Made by a program: the position numbers and the translations under genes. A stretch of 64,000 nucleotides of DNA from sequence record PX246730.1, one strand, 5' to 3'. Below are positions 2,113 through 57,332 of this stretch, one piece after another. The notes beneath the pieces were generated by a model that worked only from the letters and a program-made list of their open reading frames with translations, had not been told where the DNA came from and made no database searches. Every line of letters begins with the position of its first letter. Position 1 is the first letter of the stretch. Origin of the DNA: a phage.

Positions 2113-2186
2113 CTCTGTTTAGCTCAGCTTGGTAGAGCGTTCCGTTTGGGGCGGTAAGGCCGGAGGTTCAAGTCCTCCAACAGAGA
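2113..2186 (+). tRNA. tRNA-Pro(TGG)
   Basis: 7 bp acceptor CTCTGTT/AACAGAG, D-stem GCTC/GAGC, anticodon loop ttTGGgg, T-arm GGAGG-TTCAAGT-CCTCC, CCA encoded. Confidence 0.7.
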
Positions 2187-2196
2187 CCAAATTAAT

Positions 2197-2271
2197 GTTC
2201 CAGTAGACAAAATGGTATAGTCACCACTCTTTCAAAGTGGATATTTGAGGGTTCAAATCCCTTCTGGAACG
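2197..2271 (+). tRNA. tRNA-Glu(TTC)
   Basis: acceptor GTTCCAG/CTGGAAC, anticodon stem CCACT/AGTGG with loop ctTTCaa, T-loop TTCAAAT, CCA encoded. Confidence 0.7.
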
Positions 2272-2285
2272 CCAGTTTTGACAGA

Positions 2286-2352
2286 AGACCAATTGCAGCA
2301 AACTTAATCTTATTCATCTGAAGGTAAATCGGACAAAGAAGAGATTTGGTCT
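2286..2352 (+). repeat. spacer hairpin element copy a (CAGAAGACCAA ... TTGGTCTGG)
   Basis: inverted repeat AGACCAA/TTGGTCT flanking about 55 nt; conserved internal motif cagcaaaCTTAA; first of four paralogous copies. Confidence 0.6.
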
Positions 2353-2365
2353 GGTCATTAAGAAT

Positions 2366-2439
2366 TGCGGGTATAGAGAAAGGGCGTCTCACATGTCTCA
2401 TTAGCATGGTATCGGCAGGTTCGACTCCTGCACCCGCCT
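2366..2439 (+). tRNA. tRNA with CAT anticodon (Met, fMet or Ile2)
   Basis: acceptor pairs with ACCCGCC with 1:72 mismatch, D-stem GAGA/TCTC, anticodon stem CATGT/GCATG with loop ctCATta, T-arm GCAGG-TTCGACT-CCTGC. Confidence 0.55.
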
Positions 2440-2452
2440 CCAAATTTACAGA

Positions 2453-2511
2453 AGACCGTTTACAGCAATACTTATTAAATTTTTAGCGGAAAAAATTGAA
2501 AGATACGGTCT
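2453..2511 (+). repeat. spacer hairpin element copy b (AGACCGT ... ACGGTCT)
   Basis: same conserved 5' motif tttacagaagaccgtttacagcaa and 3' ggtctggtaat as copies a, c, d. Confidence 0.6.
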
Positions 2512-2526
2512 GGTAATACTAAACAT

Positions 2527-2600
2527 GGTTAGGAAGCACATAAGGTATGTGCGGTCGCCTGTTAAGCGAATGGCACAGGGTTCGAATCCCTGACTAACCG
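2527..2600 (+). tRNA. tRNA-Asn(GTT)
   Basis: acceptor GGTTAGG/ACTAACC (6 of 7 bp), anticodon loop ctGTTaa, T-arm CAGGG-TTCGAAT-CCCTG. Confidence 0.6.
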
Positions 2601-2611
2601 CAAAATTTAAA

Positions 2612-2698
2612 TGTGTCGTTATCCCGTAGATGGTAGCGGTGGGGACTGTAAATCCCTTGTCATTGAGACTCGGTAGGTTCGACTCCTACACGGCACAC
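2612..2698 (+). tRNA. tRNA-Tyr(GTA)
   Basis: acceptor TGTGTCG/CGGCACA, anticodon stem GGGGA/TCCCT with loop ctGTAaa, long variable arm, T-loop TTCGACT, CCA encoded. Confidence 0.7.
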
Positions 2699-2764
2699 CA
2701 ATTTTGAGAGGGCTATTTAGCCCCTCCCTTAAAGAGTTCTTACGAGTATTCTTTAAAGGAGCAG

Positions 2765-2833
2765 AAGACCAAATACAGCAAGTTACTTAAAATTTCAAGC
2801 CAATTTAATTTTGAAAAATTTAAAACTTGGTCT
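2765..2833 (+). repeat. spacer hairpin element copy c (AGACCAA ... TTGGTCT)
   Basis: conserved gcagaagaccaaatacagcaagttacttaa and cttggtctgg. Confidence 0.6.
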
Positions 2834-2852
2834 GGCTCAACAAATTTACAGA

Positions 2853-2978
2853 AGACCGTTTACAGCAAAACTTAAACAATCTATTTCTCTGGTAAAGAAA
2901 AGGCGAAGGTTCGATTCCTTCACTCGGCAGATGTCGAGTTGGTGTAATGGTAGCACTTAAGATGATAAACAACGGTCT
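2853..2978 (+). repeat. spacer hairpin element copy d, enclosing tRNA-like pieces
   Basis: inverted repeat AGACCGT (2853-2859) / ACGGTCT (2972-2978) flanks the permuted tRNA-Thr-like segment. Confidence 0.6.
2884..2957 (+). tRNA. tRNA-Thr(GGT)-like, apparently circularly permuted (3' two-thirds upstream of 5' third)
   Basis: 2884-2929: anticodon arm TTTCT-ctGGTaa-AGAAA, T-arm GAAGG-TTCGATT-CCTTC, 3' acceptor ACTCGGC plus discriminator; 2933-2957: 5' acceptor GTCGAGT (pairs 7 of 7 with ACTCGGC incl. one GU) plus complete D-arm GTGT-aatggta-GCAC. Confidence 0.35.
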
Positions 2979-3129
2979 GGTAATTATCTTTGTAGATAAG
3001 TTATTAAGCTTACCTGTGAGTATGCGACCACAAAGGGTGAAAGGGTAAATTCTAGATTTAAACCCAACAAGGCACATCGCTACAGACCTTAAGCAAGTCT
3101 GGGTAGCTTATCTACAAAGATAATTTAAT

Positions 3130-3202
3130 GGAAGTGTAGCAGAATGGTGATGCGGCAGACTTTTAATCTGACAGGCGATGGGTTCGAATCCCTCCACTTC
3201 TA
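3130..3202 (+). tRNA. tRNA-Lys(TTT) (probable)
   Basis: acceptor GGAAGTG/CACTTCT, anticodon loop ctTTTaa, T-loop TTCGAAT, CCA encoded; T-stem imperfect. Confidence 0.55.
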
Positions 3203-3209
3203 CCAATAT

Positions 3210-3283
3210 GGTTCAGTCGCAGATAAGGTAATGCAGGGGTCTCATAAGCCCTATGAATGTGGGTTCGATTCCCATCTGAACCT
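3210..3283 (+). tRNA. tRNA with CAT anticodon (Met, fMet or Ile2)
   Basis: perfect acceptor GGTTCAG/CTGAACC, anticodon stem GGGGT/GCCCT with loop ctCATaa, T-arm GTGGG-TTCGATT-CCCAT, CCA encoded. Confidence 0.65.
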
Positions 3284-3288
3284 CCAAT

Positions 3289-3361
3289 GCTGTGAAAGCA
3301 CATATGGATGTGCATTCGGCTGATAACCGAAAGGAAGAAGGTTCGAATCCTTCTCACAGTA
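3289..3361 (+). tRNA. tRNA-Ile(GAT)
   Basis: acceptor GCTGTGA/TCACAGT, D-stem GCAC/GTGC, anticodon stem TTCGG/CCGAA with loop ctGATaa, T-arm GAAGG-TTCGAAT-CCTTC, CCA encoded. Confidence 0.75.
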
Positions 3362-3379
3362 CCAATTTCAATAAAGTTG

Positions 3380-3408
3380 TTGACACTGAGATGTGACTAC
3401 TTTATAGT
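3380..3408 (+). promoter_or_regulatory. sigma70-like promoter (TTGACA-N17-TATAGT) inside tRNA cluster
   Basis: -35 TTGACA 3380-3385, -10 TATAGT 3403-3408. Confidence 0.55.
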
Positions 3409-3613
3409 AACCTTAGTTTTCGTTGCGTAGCGTCTATTTTGCAAATTTAAAATAAATGCAAACGACAATGTTTTTCTGGCAGTAGCTTGATAGGCTAAAC
3501 ACCAGTGAGGTCTTCCAATCCCTCATCAAAGAATTTGGCGTACTAGCCCACGGTATGATTAATAAGGTGGGCATCTTTAAGGGCTTTCTAAGAGAGTCTT
3601 TAAAGATTAATTA

Positions 3614-3692
3614 CGGGGCGTATCTCATCTGTCTTCTAAACAGACGTTAACCGAGTAAGTGGAGTATGCGGGTTCGAGTCCTGCCGCCTCGA
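3614..3692 (+). tRNA. tRNA-like element with TCT (Arg-type) anticodon loop, atypical D region
   Basis: acceptor CGGGGCG/CGCCTCG, perfect anticodon arm TCTGT-ctTCTaa-ACAGA, T-loop TTCGAGT, CCA encoded; only 7 nt between acceptor and anticodon stem, 22 nt before T-arm. Confidence 0.4.
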
Positions 3693-3838
3693 CCAATTTA
3701 GTTAGCAGATTACTTAGACGACCTAAGCGGGTCTTCCTGTAGGGAGGTGGTCTGTATCTCATGTTTTCCAGAACATGTAAATAATCTGAGAAGGGGCTTT
3801 ACAGTGTTGAGATAATACGGTAAGCTTCGAATTATAGT

Positions 3839-3918
3839 ATGGGACGATGTTAAGACTCTAAGGCATGAGCAACGGCTTCCAACACCGTTTCAAAGGGGTT
3901 CGACTCCTCCGTCCCATG
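3839..3918 (+). tRNA. tRNA, anticodon unresolved (possibly Trp CCA)
   Basis: perfect acceptor ATGGGAC/GTCCCAT, T-loop TTCGACT, CCA encoded; anticodon region ACGG-cttCCAaca-CCGT has a 9-nt loop. Confidence 0.45.
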
Positions 3919-3934
3919 CCAAAGTCTTATTAGG

Positions 3935-4022
3935 GGTAGGTAGCGGCTAATGGTAGCCAAACTGTCTTGAAAACAGTTGCCACTGTAGAGATACGGTGAG
4001 GGTTCGACTTCTTTACTTACCG
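3935..4022 (+). tRNA. tRNA-Ser(TGA)
   Basis: acceptor GGTAGGT/ACTTACC, anticodon arm ACTGT-ctTGAaa-ACAGT, long variable arm, T-loop TTCGACT. Confidence 0.7.
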
Positions 4023-4178
4023 CCTAATAAGATTTTAAAGCCAAGCTTCATTCGGATGTTGCTTTGGTATCCCTCGTGTTGTCGAACACACTAATAAAGC
4101 ACCTAGTAGGTGTCACGGAGAAGAGATAATATCAAGCTCTCCAAAGGTTCTAGTCACCGGATTAAACAAGACTATGCA

Positions 4179-4200
4179 AAGACCTTTTTAGGTCTTTTTA
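4179..4200 (+). terminator. hairpin plus T-run (possible intrinsic terminator or processing site)
   Basis: AAGACC-ttttta-GGTCTT followed by TTTA. Confidence 0.4.
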
Positions 4201-4278
4201 GAGGGCTTCTAAGGTTATTACAGCTTGTTGTGGAACCTTGTTGCTTAGGTTCTTAGAAGTTCTCTAAAAAGATTTAAT

Positions 4279-4353
4279 GGGAGATTGACGGTAATTGGTA
4301 AACCTATCTCGCTTAGAACGAGATGTTTGAGGGTTCGAATCCCTTGTCTCCTA
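4279..4353 (+). tRNA. tRNA-Leu(TAG), short variable loop
   Basis: acceptor GGGAGAT/GTCTCCT, anticodon arm ATCTCG-ctTAGaa-CGAGAT, T-arm GAGGG-TTCGAAT-CCCTT, CCA encoded. Confidence 0.55.
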
Positions 4354-4363
4354 CCAAATTAAT

Positions 4364-4436
4364 GCAGGTGTAGCAAAATGGTTATGCGGCTGACTCTTAA
4401 TCAGTAAGACGATGGGTTCAATTCCCTCCACCTGTA
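4364..4436 (+). tRNA. tRNA-Lys(CTT) (probable)
   Basis: acceptor GCAGGTG/CACCTGT, D-stem GCA/TGC, anticodon arm GCTGA-ctCTTaa-TCAGT, T-loop TTCAATT, CCA encoded. Confidence 0.6.
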
Positions 4437-4445
4437 CCAGATATT

Positions 4446-4518
4446 GGGGATGTAGTTTACATGGTTAAAACATAAGTTTTGCAAAATTAAGTACAGGGTT
4501 CAATTCCCTGCTTCTCCA
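4446..4518 (+). tRNA. tRNA-Ala(TGC)
   Basis: acceptor with G3:T70 wobble pair (Ala identity element), D-stem GTTT/AAAC, anticodon loop ttTGCaa, T-arm CAGGG-TTCAATT-CCCTG, CCA encoded. Confidence 0.65.
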
Positions 4519-4527
4519 CCAATTAGT

Positions 4528-4599
4528 GCATCCATAGTTTAAACGGGAAAATTACAGTCTTCCAAACTGAGGTTGAGGGTTCGATTCCCTCTGGATGCT
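4528..4599 (+). tRNA. tRNA-Gly(TCC)
   Basis: perfect acceptor GCATCCA/TGGATGC, anticodon arm CAGT-ctTCCaa-ACTG, T-arm GAGGG-TTCGATT-CCCTC, CCA encoded. Confidence 0.7.
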
Positions 4600-4608
4600 C
4601 CAAATAAT

Positions 4609-4682
4609 GCTGCTTTCGTATAATTGGCTATTACACATCCCTTGTAAGGATGGAAATGCAGGTTCGAGTCCTGTGAGCAGCA
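4609..4682 (+). tRNA. tRNA-Thr(TGT)
   Basis: acceptor GCTGCTT/GAGCAGC, anticodon arm CATCC-ctTGTaa-GGATG, T-arm GCAGG-TTCGAGT-CCTGT, CCA encoded. Confidence 0.75.
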
Positions 4683-4780
4683 CCAATTCAGAGGTCAAGT
4701 GAAAGACCGCTGGTGTCAACTGAAGACCGTAACAAATTCCACGGAGTTGAGTTAGCGGCACAACTTCAGACCTCTTTCAC

Positions 4781-4852
4781 ACTCGCTTAGTTTATATGGT
4801 AAAACACCACCCTTACAAGATGAAGAAAAAGGTTCAAGTCCTTTAGTGAGTA
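4781..4852 (+). tRNA. tRNA-Val(TAC) (tentative; weak anticodon stem)
   Basis: acceptor ACTCGCT/AGTGAGT, D-stem GTTT/AAAC, loop ctTACaa, perfect T-arm AAAGG-TTCAAGT-CCTTT, CCA encoded. Confidence 0.45.
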
Positions 4853-4856
4853 CCAT

Positions 4857-4931
4857 GTTCCAGTATCCCAATTGGCAGAGGATGCAAGCTCAAACCTTGT
4901 ACTAGTGACGGTTCGAATCCGTCTTGGAACA
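4857..4931 (+). tRNA. tRNA-Leu(CAA), short variable loop
   Basis: acceptor GTTCCAG/TTGGAAC, D-stem TCC/GGA with 11-nt loop, anticodon arm GCAAG-ctCAAac-CTTGT, T-arm GACGG-TTCGAAT-CCGTC, CCA encoded. Confidence 0.55.
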
Positions 4932-4939
4932 CCAATTTT

Positions 4940-5012
4940 GCAGGATTAGTTCAAATGGATAGAGCAACAGTCTACGAAGCTGTTAATAGGGGTTCGAATC
5001 CCTTATCCTGCG
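4940..5012 (+). tRNA. tRNA-Arg(ACG)
   Basis: perfect acceptor GCAGGAT/ATCCTGC, anticodon arm ACAGT-ctACGaa-GCTGT, T-arm TAGGG-TTCGAAT-CCCTT, CCA encoded. Confidence 0.75.
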
Positions 5013-5034
5013 CCAATTTAAAGAGGCTATTTAG

Positions 5035-5592
5035 ATGAGATATTTGAAGTATGCTTCATGGATTTTCTTAGCTTTGTTAGAGCCATTTGCAGCAATCTTA
5101 GCAGTAATTTTAGCACCCTTTGTGGTTCCATTCTACAGTGAAAAGAAAGGACACTTACCTTTTGGATTCAGATGGATGGAGACTTATGATAACCCAATTG
5201 ATGGTGACAAAGGCCACGTTGAGAGATGGGCTAAGATTAGAAAGATTGGTAAGCTCGGTGTTTATATGCAGAGAGTTGGATGGCTCTGGAGAAACAAAGC
5301 TTATAACTTCTCTTACCATGTGCTAGGAAGAGATGTAAAAGATGTTACTAAGTGGAAAGGTAATATCAACGTAAGTTCTAACCCTGAAGATAATCAGACA
5401 GGTTATCTCCTAATGTGGAACAGTAATGCTTGGGGATTATTCGCTTTTACCCCATCAATTAAAATCTTTGGTAAACAATTCTACTGGAGAATTTATGTTG
5501 GATGGAAACTTAAAAGTGTTGTCCCAGAAGAAAGAGCATTCTCAAGGGAAAGAGTTATGTTGGCATTCTTTATTCATCCACTAAGAAAGTAA
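5035..5592 (+). CDS. hypothetical membrane protein (185 aa) embedded in tRNA cluster
   Basis: ORF track; hydrophobic N-terminal segment (IFLALLEPFAAILAVILAPFVVPF); Trp/aromatic-rich. Confidence 0.5.
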   Translation: MRYLKYASWIFLALLEPFAAILAVILAPFVVPFYSEKKGHLPFGFRWMETYDNPIDGDKGHVERWAKIRKIGKLGVYMQRVGWLWRNKAYNFSYHVLGRDVKDVTKWKGNINVSSNPEDNQTGYLLMWNSNAWGLFAFTPSIKIFGKQFYWRIYVGWKLKSVVPEERAFSRERVMLAFFIHPLRK

Positions 5593-5600
5593 AGATTTAA

Positions 5601-5673
5601 AGGGGATTAGTTTACAAGGTTAAAACCTCGGTCTTTGAAATCGAAGAAGTTGGTTCAATTCCAACATCCCCCA
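5601..5673 (+). tRNA. tRNA-Gln(TTG)
   Basis: acceptor AGGGGAT/ATCCCCC (1:72 mismatch), D-stem GTTT/AAAC, anticodon arm TCGGT-ctTTGaa-ATCGA, T-arm GTTGG-TTCAATT-CCAAC, CCA encoded. Confidence 0.6.
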
Positions 5674-5678
5674 CCAAT

Positions 5679-5754
5679 GCTCCATTACTCCAATTGGCAG
5701 AGAGGCCAGACTTAAAATCTGTGTTATGTATCGGTTCGAATCCGATATGGAGTA
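5679..5754 (+). tRNA. tRNA-Leu(TAA), short variable loop
   Basis: acceptor GCTCCAT/ATGGAGT, D-arm paralogous to the CAA tRNA (caattggcaga), loop ctTAAaa, T-arm ATCGG-TTCGAAT-CCGAT, CCA encoded. Confidence 0.55.
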
Positions 5755-5762
5755 CCAAATTT

Positions 5763-5835
5763 AGCGGTATAGCATAACTGGCAATGCAGCAGTCTCTGAA
5801 GCTGTCCTATTAAGGTTCAAATCCTTATGCCGCTG
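5763..5835 (+). tRNA. tRNA-Gln(CTG)
   Basis: acceptor AGCGGTA/TGCCGCT, anticodon arm GCAGT-ctCTGaa-GCTGT, T-arm TAAGG-TTCAAAT-CCTTA, CCA encoded. Confidence 0.6.
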
Positions 5836-5869
5836 CCACTTCTAAGGGTTCTTACGAGAGTCCTTAAAT

Positions 5870-5942
5870 GTGGCCTTATCATAAAAGGTAATGACCCATG
5901 CTGTGAACATGGTCTATACGGGTTCAAATCCCGTAGGTCACC
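5870..5942 (+). tRNA. tRNA-His(GTG)
   Basis: acceptor GTGGCCT/AGGTCAC, anticodon arm CCATG-ctGTGaa-CATGG, T-arm ACGGG-TTCAAAT-CCCGT, CCA encoded. Confidence 0.75.
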
Positions 5943-5950
5943 CCAATTTA

Positions 5951-6024
5951 TAGTCCAAGTAGCTTATATGGTAAAGCGCGTGTCTGAAAAACATGAGAAG
6001 AGGGTTCAAATCCCACTGGACTAC
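5951..6024 (+). tRNA. tRNA-Phe(GAA)
   Basis: acceptor TAGTCCA/TGGACTA, anticodon arm CGTGT-ctGAAaa-ACATG, T-loop TTCAAAT. Confidence 0.7.
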
Positions 6025-6042
6025 CAATTTCAAAGGTGCTTA

Positions 6043-6777
6043 ATGAAAGAGATGACAGAACAAGGTAAGGAGATTTTTAATCTCTTAAAAACCGGTAGAG
6101 GGTTTTCTAATCCCCTTATTACTGGTGCAGCAGTTCTCGGTGGAACCGTAGCTGCCTCTACATCACTTGTAAGCTCTATTAGCTCTGTAACAGACCCTAC
6201 AATAAAAGATAAGCTTGTTGCTGCTGGGCTTACAACAGTCCTCCTAAACAGCTTTACAACAAGCCTGACAAGCACTACAGCAACTACTAAGACCCTGACA
6301 GACTACGGTCAAAAGTCTATTGATGAGTTTTCATCACGTATGCAGGTAGCAAAGGGATACTCCAATGTTATGGGTGCAGCAGGAGAACAAGTTGGTTGTA
6401 CACCATTCAGTGGTATTATGGGTGTTGCTACAGAGTATGGTCAAAAAGCTATTGACATGATGAACAGTACACTAGATAGTGTTAATGGTGTGTTAAGTGA
6501 CTTACAAGATGCTATTGATAAGGGTCTTGATACTGTTTCTGATTTAGCTAACCAAGCTGTTAGTAAGATTAATGAAGGTATCTCGAAGATTACAGCTTAT
6601 GCAGATGAAGTTGTGCAGATGATTGAAGAAGAAGCTGCCCTTATTGCAGAGTACCTTAAAACGAATATCAATGGGTTCTTAGCAGGTATCTTACCAGACT
6701 GGTTTGATGATGCCTGTAAAACTGGTGTAATTGACACTATTGCAACACCAGAAATGAAGAGCGCATTACAGAAATAA
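6043..6777 (+). CDS. hypothetical Ser/Thr-rich protein (244 aa)
   Basis: ORF 5827-6777 trimmed to ATG at 6043 because upstream part overlaps tRNA-His/Phe; no motif recognised. Confidence 0.5.
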   Translation: MKEMTEQGKEIFNLLKTGRGFSNPLITGAAVLGGTVAASTSLVSSISSVTDPTIKDKLVAAGLTTVLLNSFTTSLTSTTATTKTLTDYGQKSIDEFSSRMQVAKGYSNVMGAAGEQVGCTPFSGIMGVATEYGQKAIDMMNSTLDSVNGVLSDLQDAIDKGLDTVSDLANQAVSKINEGISKITAYADEVVQMIEEEAALIAEYLKTNINGFLAGILPDWFDDACKTGVIDTIATPEMKSALQK

Positions 6778-6778
6778 T

Positions 6779-6868
6779 GGAAGATTAACCCTAAAAGGTA
6801 AGGGAGCAGTTTGCTAAACTGCCAGTAGCTGAGAAATCGGTGTACCAGTTCAAGTCTGGTATCTTCCT
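6779..6868 (+). tRNA. tRNA-Ser(GCT)
   Basis: perfect acceptor GGAAGAT/ATCTTCC, perfect anticodon arm GCAGT-ttGCTaa-ACTGC, long variable arm, T-arm ACCAG-TTCAAGT-CTGGT, CCA encoded. Confidence 0.8.
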
Positions 6869-6875
6869 CCAATTT

Positions 6876-6948
6876 GAATCCGTGACAGAAATGGATATGT
6901 GCCTGTCTGCAAAACAGGTTTATAAGGGTTCGAGTCCCTTCGGATTCT
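6876..6948 (+). tRNA. tRNA-Cys(GCA)
   Basis: perfect acceptor GAATCCG/CGGATTC, perfect anticodon arm CCTGT-ctGCAaa-ACAGG, T-arm AAGGG-TTCGAGT-CCCTT, CCA encoded. Confidence 0.8.
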
Positions 6949-36416: not shown

Positions 36417-37520
36417 TTATTCGTAGTCTCGAATAACTAACCCAACAGGGAACTGTAAAGAACCTTTACGAGTCATCTTCTGGAACTGAACCGTTAAAGG
36501 CTTCCCGATAAACTCTTCAGGATGTTCAGCAAGATACTGTTTCTTCTCATGAGTAGTCTTCCATGAGACATCTACAAAGACGTTAGGAAGAGTCTCTACA
36601 ACAAACTTGCCATGACCACGCTTATCAGTCTTTACACCAGTCACTTTAAACTCTTCAGTGTGCATCTTCTTGTGCTTAATCAAGAAGTATGAACGGTGAC
36701 AACACTCATAGAAGGAGTCTTCAGAGATTGAACGGTACATTGCACCTTCAAACTTAGCTTCAACCCACTTATCATGAGCTTCATCGAACTCTTCCCAAGA
36801 ATTTACACGACGAGACTTAACAGGGACAACTTTACAACCATCTCTCAAATCATTCAATGGTGAAGTCTCAATAATATCTCTACGCTCAGGCCACGTTTTA
36901 GTACTGTCACAGATATCATACCAGTAGAACTTAAGTAAGTGTCTGTCAGGATTGTCTTCATTTTTAATCATGGAGACAATATCTTCTAAGTCCCAACCAT
37001 GAGCATAAATCTCTCCATCAAATTCATCAACATCTTTGTGGAGCCTTAACATTGCCATAATGTCGGGTATTAGTTCAGTAGGGATTTTATAAACAGTATT
37101 TTCACGAGAGTATGCTGTGAATACACTACCAATGCTTAAGTGTCTTGAAATTCTACAACGGACACCATCAAGTTTTGGTTGAGCATCAGCAGGGAACTTC
37201 AGATACTTTGCATGACTAACCTTTGCAGCATCATGAGCAAGCTGTACACCTACCTTCTCAGTATTCTGTGCAGACTCTTTTGTGTAAGCGTAACCTTTGC
37301 GGTCAACTTGCTTTTTATACTTAGCAGCAACTTCAAAGAGAGCTTGCTGTTCAGCGTTACGCTCATTCTTTTTACCGATGTTTTTAGGTTCTGCTGTATA
37401 CTCTTCAAACATCATCTTGCCATTTTCTTTACCATAGGTTGTAATAACTTTGTCACCTACAGCAACACACGACCAGACGTTGAAGGAACCATCTTTATTT
37501 TGTTTGTACAGAATTGTCAT
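36417..37520 (-). CDS. ATP-dependent DNA ligase
   Basis: ligase motif I KxDGxR (PKLDGVRC); about 367 aa. Confidence 0.75.
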   Translation of the reverse strand: MTILYKQNKDGSFNVWSCVAVGDKVITTYGKENGKMMFEEYTAEPKNIGKKNERNAEQQALFEVAAKYKKQVDRKGYAYTKESAQNTEKVGVQLAHDAAKVSHAKYLKFPADAQPKLDGVRCRISRHLSIGSVFTAYSRENTVYKIPTELIPDIMAMLRLHKDVDEFDGEIYAHGWDLEDIVSMIKNEDNPDRHLLKFYWYDICDSTKTWPERRDIIETSPLNDLRDGCKVVPVKSRRVNSWEEFDEAHDKWVEAKFEGAMYRSISEDSFYECCHRSYFLIKHKKMHTEEFKVTGVKTDKRGHGKFVVETLPNVFVDVSWKTTHEKKQYLAEHPEEFIGKPLTVQFQKMTRKGSLQFPVGLVIRDYE

Positions 37521-37723
37521 TTTCTCTTACCACCAATTTCTACGTCAATAACTTGAACATCGCCAGCAACATCAAACTTATGAATGATGCTTTCCACAGT
37601 GTAAGTCCAATCCTCAATGCGAACCAACTCACCTTCTCGTGGGACGATTGGATTACGTTGAGCTACCGTTGTAGTGGAGTGAACAACATCATAACGGTAG
37701 ATATAGTTTACTAGGACTTCCAT
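37517..37723 (-). CDS. hypothetical protein (68 aa)
   Basis: ORF track. Confidence 0.4.
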   Translation of the reverse strand: MEVLVNYIYRYDVVHSTTTVAQRNPIVPREGELVRIEDWTYTVESIIHKFDVAGDVQVIDVEIGGKRK

Positions 37724-37732
37724 AGTTTTTCC

Positions 37733-37966
37733 TTAAAAGGGTAAGTCGATATCAATACGTTCACCCTTAAGGACTCCAGTACGGTCTTTTGCAATCTTCC
37801 CTTCAACAATAAGAATGTGTGCAGACCTTAAAGTGTCACTGTTAAAGGCTTTTACGAACTTACTAGGCATCACTACAATGGACATCTCCTGAATCAACTC
37901 TGGAGTATAGCAATTGTCGTGAAGTTGCTGAATAACGTCTGCAAGTGTCATTTTTGATGTCTCCAA
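37733..37966 (-). CDS. hypothetical protein (77 aa)
   Basis: ORF track. Confidence 0.4.
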   Translation of the reverse strand: METSKMTLADVIQQLHDNCYTPELIQEMSIVVMPSKFVKAFNSDTLRSAHILIVEGKIAKDRTGVLKGERIDIDLPF

Positions 37967-38157
37967 TACTCAATGTCAATAAGTTCTTGTGCAATGCTTT
38001 TCAGATTACCTTTCAAGAAAACCTTCTCAGAACCTGAAAGAGATGAATTGTCAATTAACCTGTTCATTCTCTCAAACAACTTCTGTTTACGATTCTTGAT
38101 AGTTTCCTTTGAAGCATCTTTCATCATCGCTGCATGGGTTCTTCCACGGTGGCTCAT
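37948..38157 (-). CDS. hypothetical protein (69 aa)
   Basis: ORF track. Confidence 0.4.
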   Translation of the reverse strand: MSHRGRTHAAMMKDASKETIKNRKQKLFERMNRLIDNSSLSGSEKVFLKGNLKSIAQELIDIEYWRHQK

Positions 38158-38208
38158 AAGCCCTCCTATACAAGATGTAGTATAAGGTACTCTTCCCTGA
38201 GCACCTTG

Positions 38209-38724
38209 TCAACTTAGTTTTGCAAACTCTCCGTGAAGTTTAATAGCAGCTTCACAGTAAGCTTTATGGGCTTCTTCTTCTGTTGTGTATGTCCCTATAT
38301 GTATAGTCTTGCCATTATGGTTAATCTGGGCTTTCCACTTACCAGACTTACTTCTACTTGTACCTTTTAAGTTTTTTGATGTTCTAGGTTGTCTCCTATT
38401 AGACATATTCTGTTCTTTTGTGGCCTCTCTTAGATTGTCCCAAGCGTTATTCAAACCATCTCCATCTTTGTGGTCAATTTGCTTATCAGGCCACTTGCCT
38501 GTCATCCAGAACCAAGCAATTCGGTGATTGCCTGTCCTGTATCCTAAAATCTGTGTGTGCATATACACACCAGACCTTGTGCGCTTAATTGCTCCGGCTT
38601 GGCTTCCAATAACCACCCTACTACTGTGTGGAGGTCTGCCAATCCATGTTAAGACCCCTGTTTCGGGGTCATAATCTAACCAAGATTTTAACTGTTCATG
38701 TGTGAATCCACAATCTCTCATCAA
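38209..38724 (-). CDS. HNH endonuclease with AP2 DNA-binding domain (free-standing homing endonuclease-like)
   Basis: HNH signature IDHKDGDGLNNAWDNLREATKEQN; AP2-like SKSGKWKAQINHNGKTIHIGTYTTEEEAHKAYCEAAIKLHGEFA; 4-nt overlap with polymerase exon 2. Confidence 0.7.
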   Translation of the reverse strand: MMRDCGFTHEQLKSWLDYDPETGVLTWIGRPPHSSRVVIGSQAGAIKRTRSGVYMHTQILGYRTGNHRIAWFWMTGKWPDKQIDHKDGDGLNNAWDNLREATKEQNMSNRRQPRTSKNLKGTSRSKSGKWKAQINHNGKTIHIGTYTTEEEAHKAYCEAAIKLHGEFAKLS

Positions 38725-39285
38725 TGTACCTCATACCACGATTTACCAACCTTTGCTGTACCAGTTACAAGTGTTTCTTTCCTCAAACCTAAGTTTTTTG
38801 AAGCTTGTCCATACATCCAGTCAGCAATTGCTTTCATATCCTGTGTCATACCCTCTGGACATTCCCAACTATTTTCATCGTGATATGCCAGAAGTAACCT
38901 TGCTCCGATAGCTGGTTTTCGAGCATTCAGTTTTGTCAGGCCATCTTCACAGGCTTTTCTTGCTGCTAGGTTGATGGCCTCATTCTGAATCTGGGCTTCC
39001 GAACTCATCAAGAGGTAGTTCAGTAGTTTATGTGGAGATTTGCACCATATCCATGCTCCAGCGACCCTGATATAACCACCTTTAGCAATTGAAGAATTCT
39101 TCCCAAAAACCTCTTCCAGAGCCTTTTTAGACGCCTTAAAATCGGCTTCTAAGCTATCAAGTAACTTCTTAATCTTTGGCAGACGCATATAGTAAGTTTG
39201 TTTAGTCAATGCACCTTCTTCCGTAGATGATGCTTTGATAGTTTTTGCAAACTTCTCATCACCTGCACCAAACAATACATCTGGT
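38721..39285 (-). CDS. DNA polymerase (family A) exon 2
   Basis: FGAGDEK (motif B continuation) and YHDE motif C; frame open upstream only to 39284. Confidence 0.75.
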
Positions 39286-39553
39286 CAATACACTCGCAAG
39301 GTGTACCAGTTCTCTTATGAACTTCTCCGCATTTCTACGGAGTGTCGGACTATATCACGTAGTAGTAATACTACCGTTGCACTTGGGAATGGTCATTAGC
39401 TTACCACCCTACTCTACTCAGTTCATACATTAAGTATGCTTTTCGATAGTCTCTGAACGTTCCTCTTAAGAGGCTTCGCTGCTGATTACCATATCTTTAC
39501 AGACTTAGGCTTCCAGCAATTCACAACGTTTTACATGCGCCACTGACGCATAA
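39286..39553 (-). mobile_element. group I intron in DNA polymerase gene (no internal ORF)
   Basis: on minus strand, in order: P-like AATTGCTGGAAG (about 39510-39521), Q-like AATCAGCAGC (39478-39487), R GTTCAGAGACTA (39447-39459), S GATATAGTCC (39346-39356); 5' exon ends in U, intron ends in G. Confidence 0.7.
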
Positions 39554-41718
39554 ATGCCATTTTTGGCTTTCTTACGACCTTTTGTAATCTCGTGGAGAAG
39601 TTCCTCATCCTGTGTCTCCCTACAACGAACAATGTCTTCTTCCTTGTTCAGACCAAAGTAAATACTGTTCAGTGTATGCGCATCAGTCCCTGTGTAGACT
39701 TCATAGAGGTCGTTCTCAGCATCATAACGAAGATACTTGTCAGTTTCTGGATTAAGATACTTATCGAGATGCTTGCAATAGTATCTACCGTCATCTTGCT
39801 TAGTGAACTCTACTGACTCTTTACCCTCAGTTACTGCTTTGGTGAACTCTTTATCACCCATAAAGTTACAAAGGAGAACTAGCTGTGCAGAGTTCTGGTC
39901 AACTGAAACGATATTAGTCCCTTCCTCGCAAATCCACACCTCCCTCATAGGCGCTCCATAGACAGCAGCACCAGACGGTACGTTTACAATACCATATTGT
40001 GTCATACGTCCAGTTGAAGTACCAAACACCATTGCACCAGCACTAAGGCGACCATCAGGACGAATCTGGTTCAACCAACCTTTTTCATCATCCTTTGAGT
40101 TCTCAATAGTTCTACGTCGGTGCATCAAAGTATAGTACTTAGCAATCTTCTGTCCAAGCTCACCTTCAATCGTGTCATAAGATGACTCAGTAAGCTTTGG
40201 TGAAGTACGGATTAAACAAGGCTCAAGCAAATCTGTGTATTTTTTCACAGACCAGTTATGCTCAATGTACTGTACACCTTCATGCTCAACATAGCTCAAA
40301 CCACACCGCTCAACCATTTCCTGCCACTTAGGATGTTTTGTAATCATCTTTTTATTGTCTTTGAAACGACAAACCTTAACAGGGCGACCGTCTGAGTCTT
40401 TCTTGTAGTTCCAGTCATCTGGAATCCAACCAACTGATTTCAAGTAGTCTTTAACAACTGCTACCTGAGTCATACGAGAAACTTCAAACTCAATTGGTGT
40501 ATATGGTGCATCAATCAAACCTGTGTAGCGACTTGACTCAAGTTCAAAGTGGTTAACAACATGACTGTTATAGTACTTCACGGTTTTGACTGTTTTTACT
40601 GGCTTCCAGTCTTTGCATTTCTTACCAATCTTTGCGTTCAAATCATTGCAAATTGCACGAGCATCCTTCATTGCTACAAAGCCTTCCTTGTACTCTTCAC
40701 CAGTTACAGAGTTGGTTGGTGTATAGCAATTTCTCTTTTCAATGTTAAAAATCTTTGTAGTTGGCTTACCAAATGGTTTGATTTCGTATGTCTGCATCTC
40801 ACCGTTACGTACCTGTTGACGATACTTTGTCTTAGGATACTTGGTAATTCTTTTCAGTCCATCTGCATGACCAAACGTTTCAACATACTCATTCCAAGCT
40901 TTTGCAAACTCTTCTCCAGTCACTTTACCTTTGGTCTTAATAGTTGGAGGAAGGTGTGGTTCAACCTCTGAAGCAAGCTCATTAGTCAACTTGTCAAGTT
41001 CCTTTACATGGAACTCCATAAGCTCCTTATCAGCTTTCCAACCATTGATAGCCTGTTGACTCATCCAGAAAGATGTTTCTTTAGCTCGCATGTAGGTTTC
41101 ATAAGTGTCTATGCCACACTTCTTAAGCTTGAGATACTCGTTATCAAGTGCCCGTTTAGTTTTGGCGTTAATACGGATATCTTCTACAACACGAGTGAAG
41201 ATTTCTGCATTCCACACACCCCAATGTTCAATCTCTGGTTTACGAACACCAACACGAGCACCCCATGCAGCCAAACCATGAGCACCTTTATAGCCCTTTG
41301 GAGTTGGTCTATCCATCCACTGAACACGAGACTGAATAAGAGAATCCTGAAAGAAATTACTCCACGGCTTACACTTTGGATTATCAAAGTTCCATAAATC
41401 AGGTGCAATGTGATTGAAAACCCACCAGTCATAACCGAGACCATTATGGATGCAAAGGCGTTTTGCCTTTAACGCAAATTCAACACCTTCACGTAAGCCG
41501 CCCTTGATGTACTTGGTATACTTGTGACCGAGGATAGGCTCATCTGTAAAGACCCATACAGGTGGCTCTTCATCGTCAGATTTATAGTCTGCGAAAGCCA
41601 TTACGTGAACTTTAGTGAACTCAAGGAGTAAACCATCAGTTTCTGTATCACCAACCAAATGTAAGTTTTTAAAATCTACGTTTTCCATTTTCACTCCCTC
41701 TAAAATCATTAACCACAT
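39554..41718 (-). CDS. DNA polymerase (family A) exon 1, with 3'-5' exonuclease domain
   Basis: Exo I motif GDTETDGL; polymerase motif A region VDQNSAQLVLL; motif B start RKKAKNGI; ORF continues into intron to stop at 39505. Confidence 0.75.
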
Positions 41719-41944
41719 ACATTACTGCAAAAAATTATAAAAAGCAAGTTGACAATGTACTTGACAAGGTGTTAATCTTTGCGAAGTGGGTTTTTACTTA
41801 AAAGGTTACTTAACAGTTTAACTATACAGATACTTTAAAACTCTTAAAAGATTATTTAATAGCTTTTAAAAGCTTTAAAGTATAACGTATAGAATACGTT
41901 AAGATAAAAGATTAAAACTTAATAGTTACTTAAAAGAGGCTTAC

Positions 41945-42367
41945 ATGCAGAAAATGTTTGTTCACCCAGACATAGCTGACTTTGTTAGAGCTTTGCAGAA
42001 GTTGGAAGAACTTGACATTGCTGCTCAACGGGAATATGCTCACCATCACAGGAGGATGGTTGATATACAACATGAGATAGAGTTGTCTGAAAACTATGAA
42101 GATGACTTAAAATGCTCTGTATTTGAGCATATGAAAGATGTTGCTACAGCGAGACGTAAAGCTAAAGACACAGTTGCTTTACTAGATTCTCTTAAAAAGA
42201 GGTTGCAAAGTGGTACAGACCTGTGTAATCTAGCGTCACTGATTAACGATGTTGAAACTTCTTGGGATAGGCACTATTATCCACGTTCTGAAAAGACACT
42301 TGACTTTTCTTCATCTGAAAACTTAAAATGTTCTAGAAAGAAACTTAACCAACTGAGAGAGAAATAA
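41945..42367 (+). CDS. hypothetical protein (140 aa)
   Basis: ORF track. Confidence 0.45.
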   Translation: MQKMFVHPDIADFVRALQKLEELDIAAQREYAHHHRRMVDIQHEIELSENYEDDLKCSVFEHMKDVATARRKAKDTVALLDSLKKRLQSGTDLCNLASLINDVETSWDRHYYPRSEKTLDFSSSENLKCSRKKLNQLREK

Positions 42368-54871: not shown

Positions 54872-56068
54872 ATGAACAAAGTACAGATTATTAAAAAGAA
54901 TGGCTCACTCGAAGAACCTGATATCAAAAAAGTTTTAGTAGCAGTCACAAAGTCAGCTAACAGAGTTGGTTATAAAGAGCTTCCACCAGATGTTACTCAA
55001 GCTCTTGAGTCAGCATTTATGAGGATTCTGGTAAAGTCCACTAAGCAGAATAATTTGCTAATTTCTGTAAATGATATTCACAGTATTGTTGAAGGTGCTT
55101 TGGCAGAAGTCAATCACGAGATTTATGAGTCTTACTCAACATACAGAAATTATCGTAAAGAGGTTGCTCAAAATTGGGATGAGCTTTACCAAAAGACTAA
55201 AGACACACTCTTCTTAGGTGACCGTGAAAACGCTAACTTTGACAGTAGTTTAATTTCTACAAAAGGCTCAATTATTCGTGGTTACCTGACTAAAGAAATC
55301 TTTAAACAGTACCATTTAACACCAGAGGAACTCGAATCCATTGAAAAAGGGTTTATCTACATCCATGACTTAAGAGACCTAATTTTTGGTGGGATTAACT
55401 GTTGCCTGTTTGACATTGGTAAAGTACTGAAAGGTGGCTTTGAAATGTCTGGCATCGAATACTGTGAACCAAAATCTGTACTGTCAGCCTTACAAGTTAT
55501 TGGTGATGTAGTTCTTTCAGCAACTGCACAGCAATTTGGTGGCTTTACTTTAGCAGAGATTGATAAGGTACTTGTACCGTATGCTAAGAAGTCTCTACGC
55601 TATCATGCTGAGAAAGCAGCATCTTATGGTATTCCTAAAGAACATTACCACAATTATGTCATGGAGCAGCTACAGATTGAACTGACTCAAGGTTTCCAGT
55701 CACTTGAAATGAAACTAAACACTGTGCCTTGTAGTCGTGGGGATTTTGCATTCACAACTTTGACATTCGGGTTGCTTGACTCAGATATGTCCAATGAAGA
55801 TAACCGACTGCAATATATGATTGCAAGTACTCTCCTAGATGTTCGTATGAATGGACAAGGTAAGAGCAAGAAGCCTGTTGTATTCCCTAAACTGGTTTAT
55901 ATTTATGACCAGAAGAGACACGATGAGAATATCTGTCAAGGCCACCTGTACAGTAAAGCTATTGAGTGTTGCTCTAAAGCTATGTATCCAGATTTCTTAA
56001 GTGTATCTGGTCATGGTGCTGTAGCAGAGGCTTTTGAGCGTTCTGGTAAGGTTATTTCACCGATGGGT
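54872..56068 (+). CDS. nrdD: anaerobic ribonucleotide reductase exon 1
   Basis: N-terminal ATP-cone-like region; ORF ends SPMG then in-frame stop inside intron. Confidence 0.75.
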
Positions 56069-56384
56069 TAACAAGCTCTATAGCTCATCTAAAACGTGCC
56101 TAAACAGGGAAACTCTACAGATGTAGACAATCCTGTGCTAAATGATGTATGATGTAAGAAACTATACAACATAGGAGTCTTACATGCCAAATAACTTCGA
56201 ATACGAGTTTGAATACATCTAAATGCCGAACGACTAACCGTGATGAATGTAGCGGTGTAGGGTCAAGCGACTCGAAATGGTACGCTACTTAGAAATAAGT
56301 AGAAGATATAGTCTGGACTTACTGGCGACAGTAAGCAGCTTGAATAAAGCGGGGTAAGCTTAGCGAACTTACCTGAACAACAAG
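56069..56384 (+). mobile_element. group I intron in nrdD (316 nt, no internal ORF)
   Basis: P-like CAGGGAAA (56105-56112), Q-like AATCCTGTGC (56129-56138), R-like CGAACGACTAAC (56227-56238), S AAGATATAGTC (56303-56313); 5' exon ends in T, intron ends in G; splicing gives in-frame SPMG|CRAFLSP. Confidence 0.7.
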
Positions 56385-57332
56385 TGTAGAGCATTTTTAT
56401 CACCATACCATAACGAATATGGTGAAGAGTTTTATGTAGGTCGTGCTAACATTGGTGCTGTATCTTTGAACTTGCCAATGATTTACCAGTATTCTAAAGA
56501 TAATGGTTTAGATTTCTGGAAAGAGCTTGATAAGTACCTAGAGATGATTCGCAGCTTCCATAAGAAACGCTACGAAATGATTGCTAATATGCCAGCAAGT
56601 TCTAACCCTCTTGCATTCACACAAGGTGGTCTGTACAAAGGGAATAAGAAACCTACTGACAAGGTTGGTTGGGATATCGTGAAGTCCTTCACAGCTTCTT
56701 TTGGGGTTACTGCGCTTGATGAGTTGTCTGTTCTTGCTGAAGGTAAACGACTTCATGAAGCTGGAAGCTGTAGTTTTGCATACGATGTTCTGGAATACAT
56801 CAACATGAAAACTGAAGAGTTTAAAAACGAAGACGGCTTCTTATATGCAGTCTATGGCACTCCAGCAGAATCACTTTGTGGAACTCAGCTAAAACAGTTC
56901 AGAGATATGTTTGGCGTTATCAAAGGTGTTTCTGACAAGGAATATTTTACAAACAGTTTCCATATGAATGTTGCAGCAAACATCTCACCATTTGAGAAGC
57001 AGGACTTAGAAGAACCATTCTTCCATATCTGTAGAGGTGGCAGAATCCAGTATGTAAGGGTAGCTAACCCAGAAAACTTAACAGCACTTAAAAGTTGTAT
57101 TACAAGAGGGATGTTGAAAGGTTTTTATCAGGGACTTAACTTTGACTTAGCAATCTGTGAACATTGTGGTAACAGACCAAAGGCTGATGTTGAAGAATGT
57201 GAGGTTTGTCATTCACATGATATCTCTGTGATTAACAGGGTGTGTGGGTACTTGTCATTCACAAAAATTAAAGGTCAGTCTCGAATGAATGACGCTAAGA
57301 TGGCAGAAATTAAGGATAGGATTTCTATGTAA
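56385..57332 (+). CDS. nrdD: anaerobic ribonucleotide reductase exon 2
   Basis: C-terminal Zn site CEHCGN...CEVCHSHD and glycyl-radical motif RVCGYL; combined length 714 aa. Confidence 0.75.
   Translation, partial: CRAFLSPYHNEYGEEFYVGRANIGAVSLNLPMIYQYSKDNGLDFWKELDKYLEMIRSFHKKRYEMIANMPASSNPLAFTQGGLYKGNKKPTDKVGWDIVKSFTASFGVTALDELSVLAEGKRLHEAGSCSFAYDVLEYINMKTEEFKNEDGFLYAVYGTPAESLCGTQLKQFRDMFGVIKGVSDKEYFTNSFHMNVAANISPFEKQDLEEPFFHICRGGRIQYVRVANPENLTALKSCITRGMLKGFYQGLNFDLAICEHCGNRPKADVEECEVCHSHDISVINRVCGYLSFTKIKGQSRMNDAKMAEIKDRISM

Follow-up and report, generated by a model that had tools for sequence, protein, structure and literature searches.

A free-standing HNH-AP2 endonuclease gene beside a split DNA polymerase gene in Felixounavirus phages: a candidate homing cassette that may spread independently of the neighbouring intron

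Introduction

Homing endonucleases that join an N-terminal HNH_3 nuclease domain to a C-terminal AP2 domain were described by Magnani et al. (2004) for Tetrahymena, Trichodesmium, RB49 and Felix O1, and IPA-HNH of ICP1 is a related enzyme. In collaborative homing, known from T3/T7-like phages and from S-PM2, a free-standing endonuclease gene lies beside a gene whose intron carries no open reading frame (Bonocora & Shub 2009; Zeng et al. 2009; as recounted in PMC3984707, PMC2790892 and PMC10448857). In trans-homing of the MobE type, the free-standing HNH endonuclease lies within recombination distance of an immobile intron and cuts apart from the intron insertion site. Moreover, nuclease genes sit at the boundaries of genetic exchange (PMC10448857). 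The genome paper of Felix O1 reported six HNH genes and no introns.

Here, we analysed a window of 64,000 nt of phage DNA (sequence record PX246730.1), in which a reading of the sequence alone had placed an HNH-AP2 endonuclease gene directly behind an intron-containing polymerase gene and had proposed collaborative homing. We compared this locus with those of related phages and of metagenome contigs. The best explanation, to which we give a probability of about 0.6, is independent intronless homing of an HNH-AP2 cassette into a hot-spot slot.

Results

A group I intron that lacks an ORF splits the DNA polymerase gene

The window belongs to a Felix O1-like myovirus of the genus Felixounavirus, and its region 37500-42000 has matches in 262 phage records and shares 97% identity with Escherichia phage phiWec172. 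Elsewhere in the window, 22 tRNA genes at the Rfam gathering score are clustered at 2113..6948 (plus strand), as expected for Felix O1-like phages. The records MG065664.1, MG065668.1 and GU169904.1, which bear the names Campylobacter phage A132/A126 and Staphylococcus phage SA1, hold Felixounavirus sequence that is 96-100% identical to the locus, and they may be mixed or mislabelled assemblies.

The ORF list and Pfam showed a family A DNA polymerase gene that is split into exon ORFs 39505..41718 and 38721..39275. The group I intron covariance model RF00028 matched between them at 64.2 bits (Rfam gathering score 50). The intron bounds given by Rfam (39608..39325) were dropped for 39545..39278, which were obtained by alignment to the uninterrupted polymerase of phage heid. 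The features of the split gene are as follows:

39546..41709, minus strand: DNA polymerase exon 1; the ATG at 41709 yields a 906-aa product, and the ORF also opens at 41718
39278..39545, minus strand: group I intron without an ORF, 268 nt, splitting the motif B / O-helix codons (RKKAKNGIYA/LLFGAG)
39535..39540, minus strand: internal guide sequence GCGCAU (intron positions 6-11), read from the sequence; P1 hairpin in the predicted fold
39466..39469, minus strand: intron hairpin loop, the insertion point in relatives, between intron positions 77 and 80
38721..39277, minus strand: DNA polymerase exon 2, including the stop TGA (38723-38721)
38742..39940, minus strand: hypervariable 3′ polymerase block, 'type W' in the window, about 75% identical in nucleotides to the 'type H' of many relatives, against 94-100% for the rest of the gene

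Splicing out the 268 nt restored the reading frame and gave a 2721-nt gene for 906 aa that is colinear with the heid protein. By reading of the sequence and by the predicted fold, the exon-1 end AUGCGU would pair with GCGCAU to form P1, with a U.G pair at the 5′ splice site, and the last base of the intron is G. The claim that the neighbouring intron lacks its own endonuclease ORF stands: the ORF list shows none inside these 268 nt, which are too short for one and are overlapped only by antisense chance ORFs.

GenBank relatives routinely annotate the spliced polymerase as two separate 'DNA polymerase' CDSs, the first of which reads through into the intron to a stop (39505 in the window), and small spurious ORFs are sometimes called within the intron. 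Annotators should be warned that the 'two DNA polymerase genes' of many such genomes are a single spliced gene. The Felixounavirus polymerase intron was not described in any of the literature that we searched. At 56011..56335 (plus strand), Rfam indicates another group I intron (53.7 bits against the gathering score of 50). It lies between ORFs 54872..56071 and 56466..57332, which, judging by their translations, look like the two parts of a split anaerobic ribonucleotide reductase gene (nrdD-like); the gap shows no evident endonuclease ORF.

Intron relatives carry an Endo VII-family ORF

PMBT20 and EC6 share the ribozyme of the window, which is about 99% identical and invariant outside the insertion hairpin, while their exon flanks are just 78-81% identical to those of the window. 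This disparity indicates recent homing of the intron. At the hairpin loop, relatives hold a 537-539-nt insert encoding an Endo VII-family endonuclease, and the insert protein of PMBT20 and EC6 matches Pfam Endonuclease_7 at 71 bits. This ORF of 160-170 aa, annotated 'endonuclease VII', lies at 4486..4971 of the PMBT20 locus (L017) and at 3772..4254 of the EC6 locus (L021), and it probably serves the intron as its homing endonuclease. An Endo VII catalytic motif is likewise used by F-CphI of cyanophage S-PM2.

The intron of EC106 is 311 nt long and retains a longer hairpin with a remnant resembling the 3′ end of the Endo VII ORF, so at least this ORF-less form appears to be a deletion derivative. 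In EC6 and pEP20, the ORF-containing intron was found although the position 3′ of the polymerase gene, where the HNH-AP2 gene lies in the window, is empty. Since the intron occurs there and carries its own Endo VII ORF, it does not, to judge from this distribution, depend on the HNH-AP2 gene and is a separate mobile element.

All intron-containing alleles share the junction GCGT/TATTG (the slash marks the insertion site), and naive alleles read GCAC/TGCTG. On a type H background, the GCGT/TATTG junction would represent a co-conversion tract of a few bases only. We also considered the cluster of silent differences at type W intron-less insertion sites as resistance mutations, but these are equally explained by a short co-conversion tract from a type H-like intron donor.

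The HNH-AP2 gene overlaps the polymerase stop codon

ORF 38209..38724 (minus strand) is present in the window as described, and the following features lie in or at it:

38209..38721, minus strand: HNH-AP2 endonuclease gene, allele 'a'; 170 aa from the ATG at 38721, CDS of 513 nt (the mechanical ORF opens at TTG 38724)
38404..38526, minus strand: HNH_3 nuclease domain with the motif IDH...NLR...EQN, of the His-Asn-Asn type as in I-HmuI, with a weak match to 1u3e (I-HmuI)
38230..38358, minus strand: AP2 DNA-binding domain (Pfam), matched by the solved AP2 domains of WRI1 and ERF1
38209..38277, minus strand: last 69 nt of the endonuclease gene (EEAHKAYCEAAIKLHGEFAKLS), with 91-100% identity among the otherwise divergent alleles a, c, d and b′
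38198..38212, minus strand: conserved TTGACAAGGTGCTCA motif, which overlaps the endonuclease stop codon

Domains were assigned from Pfam scores exceeding the curated thresholds. HNH_3 (PF13392) matched at 54.7 bits against a cutoff of 24.8 (aa 67-107 of the 171-aa ORF), and AP2 (PF00847) matched at the C-terminus at 37.1 bits against 33.3 (aa 123-165), which bears out the view that a protein with an HNH nuclease and an AP2 DNA-binding domain adjoins the split polymerase gene. Among solved structures, AP2/ERF domains of plants are nearest in sequence, with a weak match also to the nicking endonuclease I-HmuI (1u3e); given the I-HmuI-type motif, the enzyme probably nicks DNA. The identical 513-nt CDS is annotated in heid, PMBT20, EC106 and Michonne. 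The ORF is a real and probably active free-standing HNH-AP2 homing endonuclease gene.

A 4-nt overlap with the polymerase stop had been noted earlier, and this holds only when the gene is started at TTG 38724; from the ATG (38721-38719), as relatives annotate it, the gene shares one base with the polymerase stop TGA (TGATG). GAGGT sits 6 nt before this ATG, and a sigma-70 scan found no promoter-like site between the intron and the endonuclease gene. On these three features, the endonuclease gene would be expressed via translational coupling to the polymerase gene, which we counted in favour of independent intronless homing.

One slot holds diverged alleles or nothing

Among the relatives, a single slot runs from the polymerase stop to the conserved TTGACAAGGTGCTCA (TTGACA) motif, its right edge. 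It is either empty or filled by one of at least four HNH-AP2 alleles, which are homologous but diverged:

Allele a: the window, heid
Allele b: HY02, REP10, bumzen; variant b′ in SUSP1/2
Allele c: Tf, LNA1 and also HMD-P8
Allele d: Felix O1, FO1a gp94
Empty, with the motif 5-6 nt after the polymerase stop: AYO145A, wV8, EC6, pEP20

The empty junction of AYO145A and wV8 contains ...TGGCTTGAGGTACACTAATTAGTATTGACAAGG... in place of a gene. Some allele fills the slot in about 159 of about 262 related records, and the gene is absent from roughly 40% of close relatives; the HNH-AP2 gene is polymorphic in its presence at a fixed site. The four alleles tested all carry HNH_3 and AP2. Divergence among them is strong in the N-terminus, in the nuclease region and in the beta-sheet of AP2, and their last 23 residues are almost identical; with allele b, the conserved tail shows about 80% identity over a longer stretch. 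The 69-nt tail likely serves as an arm for recombination when cassettes are exchanged.

One record, AYO145A, has a promoter annotated where TTGACAAGGTGCTCA matches. The sigma-70 scan did not call TTGACA as a promoter, the best -10-like hexamer being 22 nt away, and we therefore treat TTGACA as a conserved motif only. Just 3′ of the slot, a 69-aa ORF at 37948..38157 (minus strand), which is similar to Felix O1 gp93, varies in its presence among close relatives: HY02, wV8, EC6 and SP116 lack it, and UAB_Phi87, Michonne and pEP20 have an extra small ORF at this position.

Allele a is under strong purifying selection, with a dN/dS of about 0.05 for the window even against Michonne at a dS of 1.2, and this selection holds across genera. 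This constraint is stronger than expected of a purely selfish gene under the classical homing cycle, and it could point to some advantage for the phage. The protein might then be retained not for its own spread but for interference with co-infecting relatives or for a DNA-binding or regulatory role of the AP2 domain. An intron endonuclease that confers a competitive advantage on its phage has been reported (PMC11620839), which would agree with such a role; however, the absence of the gene from so many close relatives and its replacement in many others mark it as dispensable, and we consider retention for phage benefit improbable.

Allele a co-occurs with unaltered insertion sites

The layout of the locus is formally that described for collaborative homing (PMC3984707, PMC10448857), as the sequence-only reading stated. 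In its strict form, the enzyme would cleave the intron-less insertion site, the intron would protect its carrier, and gene and intron would be inherited together. We therefore give the polymerase state of the 50 allele-a records among the matches listed, which were retrieved with the endonuclease gene plus both exon flanks as the query and counted from BLAST spans, RefSeq/GenBank duplicates included:

Polymerase uninterrupted: 26/50
Intron of 268 nt: 8/50
Intron of 311 nt: 2/50
ORF-containing intron of about 805 nt: 14/50

The proposal that the endonuclease cleaves intron-less alleles and so mobilises the intron runs against these counts, in which 26 of the 50 records are intron-less with an unaltered insertion site. 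The intron-less state was confirmed directly in heid, LF82P3, Michonne, SP116 and the IMG/VR and metagenome contigs L004, L014 and L030, and L018, L019 and L024 are further allele-a carriers with an uninterrupted polymerase gene. From 89 nt upstream to 49 nt downstream, heid and the endonuclease-less contig L013 have the same insertion-site sequence, so an enzyme encoded by allele a could not cut the insertion site without cutting its own genome. Moreover, both common intron-less site variants, type H (heid) and type W (SP116), coexist with allele a. The association of allele a with the intron is weak (24/50 against about 73/212 others; odds ratio 1.76, p 0.10, in a naive test on non-independent records), and joint inheritance of the endonuclease gene and the intron was not found.

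Strict collaborative homing can draw on the likeness to the T3/T7-like and S-PM2 cases (PMC3984707, PMC10448857), on the distance of 555 nt from the insertion site to the start of the endonuclease gene and on a recombination breakpoint that coincides with the insertion site in FO1a. Against the unaltered sites, their two variants and the weak association, it is not supported for allele a, and we regard it as very unlikely. These records are best explained if the intron insertion site is not a target of the allele a enzyme. All polymerase states and both block types were found together with allele a, which we counted for a spread independent of the intron.

Mosaic boundaries coincide with the ends of the cassette

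We aligned the 8-kb loci of relatives with MAFFT and found identity breakpoints at four places: at about 39940, at the intron insertion site (FO1a), at the polymerase stop and at the start of the 69-nt tail. The polymerases of the window and heid share 99% identity over their first 590 residues, against 79-82% over the last approximately 315. This divergence of the 3′ polymerase module (motif B onward) between allele types, about 75% identity in nucleotides, exceeds that of the remaining gene between genera, which is 84% identical to SUSP1/2 and Michonne. Identity to allele-a carriers leaps from 55-83% to 93-100% exactly at the polymerase stop, the differences common to all allele-a as against all endonuclease-less genomes lie only in the last 15 nt of the polymerase gene, and allele a was found on both type W and type H exon blocks. 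From the fixed differences and the mosaic boundaries, we infer a target near the insertion point of the cassette. Such a pattern would be expected of a cassette that takes only very short flanking tracts along when it moves and has its target at or near the empty junction, and it agrees with the placing of nuclease genes at boundaries of exchange (PMC10448857).

The window haplotype, with its type W block, 268-nt intron and allele a, resembles a genome of the REP10 type after exchange of allele b for allele a, with apparent crossovers at the polymerase stop and in the conserved tail. If the target is the empty junction only, such an allele-for-allele replacement (window versus REP10) would have to come about through ordinary recombination in the conserved flanks.

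ORF-less introns adjoin occupied slots

The combinations of intron form and slot state were counted as follows, the record counts being read from the span and piece numbers of BLAST tables:

ORF-less intron with allele a: 10 records among the matches listed
ORF-less intron with allele b: 32 records among the matches listed
ORF-less intron with allele c: at least 3 records (LNA1, HMD-P8, Tf)
ORF-less intron with an empty slot: 0 found among the matches listed
Intron with Endo VII ORF and an empty slot: at least 21 records
Intron with Endo VII ORF and allele a: 14 records among the matches listed

Every typed ORF-less intron thus adjoins an occupied slot (at least 45 occupied against 0 empty, among about 95 intron-containing records in the matches listed), although these represent few independent lineages and leave out about 9 intron-containing records. 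This pattern is suggestive and hints at a functional link between the slot and the intron. The metagenomes held 18 related loci, all of them intron-less and hence uninformative on this pattern; retrieval from IMG/VR with the exon-2 protein gave 16 loci.

Trans-homing or endonuclease turnover, of the MobE / I-TevIII type, would produce such a pattern. The slot enzyme would cut near its own site, and conversion tracts would sometimes span the 555 nt to the intron, so that an intron that has lost its ORF could hitch-hike; selection on the intronic ORF would be relaxed, leaving ORF-less introns beside free-standing genes. The mechanism is documented for T4 mobE (PMC2790892), turnover was proposed by Barth et al. 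(PMC10448857), the endonuclease gene lies within co-conversion distance of the non-autonomous intron, and the ORF remnant in the 311-nt EC106 intron marks that form as a deletion derivative. However, only about six distinct haplotype combinations underlie the pattern, and with about 60% slot occupancy chance could give it. The mosaic boundary of allele a at the polymerase stop also argues that long tracts into the polymerase gene are not the rule, and an ORF-less intron, being immune to re-invasion, can persist without drive. We regard trans-homing or turnover as a secondary possibility of fairly low probability.

The other alleles may differ from allele a in this respect. All 43 allele b records among the matches listed are on the type W block, and 32 of these have the 268-nt intron. 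In a comparison of L025 (bumzen), L002 (HY02), L020 (REP10), L033, L022 (FO1a) and L044, alleles b and d never occurred without either the intron or a recoded insertion site (GCCC/TGTTATTTGGAGCC; GCCC/TGTTATTTGGAGCCGGAGAC). Alleles b and d, and not the allele a of the window, therefore appear to be the better candidates for an insertion-site-directed endonuclease. In a turnover system, the intron would lose its Endo VII ORF only where an HNH-AP2 gene 555 nt downstream carries it; the alleles would differ in target, b and d may be true insertion-site cutters (real collaborative homing), and allele a would be a later replacement. We regard this as a possible reading, though a distinctly less probable one than independent homing. 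If true, sequenced and culturable phages of Felixounavirus would provide three intron forms, at least three polymerase 3′ blocks and no fewer than four endonuclease alleles, and the origin of collaborative homing would be directly testable in them.

Discussion

Independent intronless homing accounts for the locus in the following way. The free-standing HNH-AP2 gene would be the allele a cassette in a hot-spot slot that extends from the polymerase stop to the TTGACA motif. During mixed infection, the DNA of a relative would be cut or nicked by the enzyme at the empty polymerase-stop/intergenic junction or close to it, and repair would then copy in the endonuclease gene together with a very short co-conversion tract. 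The intron would be a separate mobile element which in relatives has its own Endo VII-type endonuclease, and of which the window holds an ORF-less copy on a type W block.

By itself, the endonuclease gene is ordinary: members of its family had been reported from Felix O1 before, and relatives bear the annotation of HNH homing endonucleases. What makes the locus valuable is the population picture, in which an allelic endonuclease slot adjoins a polymerase module of hypervariable sequence and an intron that occurs both with an ORF of its own and without one. These are easily grown coliphages and Salmonella phages, so collaborative homing, trans-homing and turnover can be tested by simple crosses.

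Among known systems, the HNH-AP2 homing endonucleases share with the window gene the N-terminal HNH_3 and C-terminal AP2 domains, and both are free-standing and polymorphic in their presence. Felix O1 (FO1a gp94) holds a homologous allele in the same slot, to which the window allele is only distantly similar outside the last 23 residues. The nicking enzymes I-HmuI, I-BasI and I-PfoP3I of phage polymerase introns have in common with the window gene the His-Asn-Asn HNH motif (weak 1u3e match) and the association with a family A polymerase; however, they are intron-encoded and have no AP2 domain, and in the Felix O1-like group the intronic endonuclease is of the Endo VII family.

The collaborative-homing system of T3/T7-like phages, in which an HNH gene lies 3′ of DNA polymerase gene 5, has a family A polymerase as the host gene, as here. 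Like F-CphI/psbA of S-PM2, it also sets a free-standing endonuclease gene beside a gene with an ORF-less intron, again as here. Its defining cleavage of the insertion site, however, appears contradicted in this locus by the co-occurrence of the gene with intact, unaltered sites. MobE-type trans-homing likewise involves a free-standing HNH endonuclease within recombination distance of an immobile intron, and a cut site apart from the intron insertion site, as proposed here. Unlike that type, the window intron is without any ORF remnant, and the mosaic boundaries of allele a stop at the polymerase stop codon.

The 'HEG islands' described by Barth, Dunham & Seed 2023 (PMC10448857) resemble this locus in that the endonuclease gene and the intron site bracket an exchanged polymerase block. 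They differ in being from another phage group, whereas the Felixounavirus locus is a single slot with an allelic series of homologous genes that share a conserved 3′ end.
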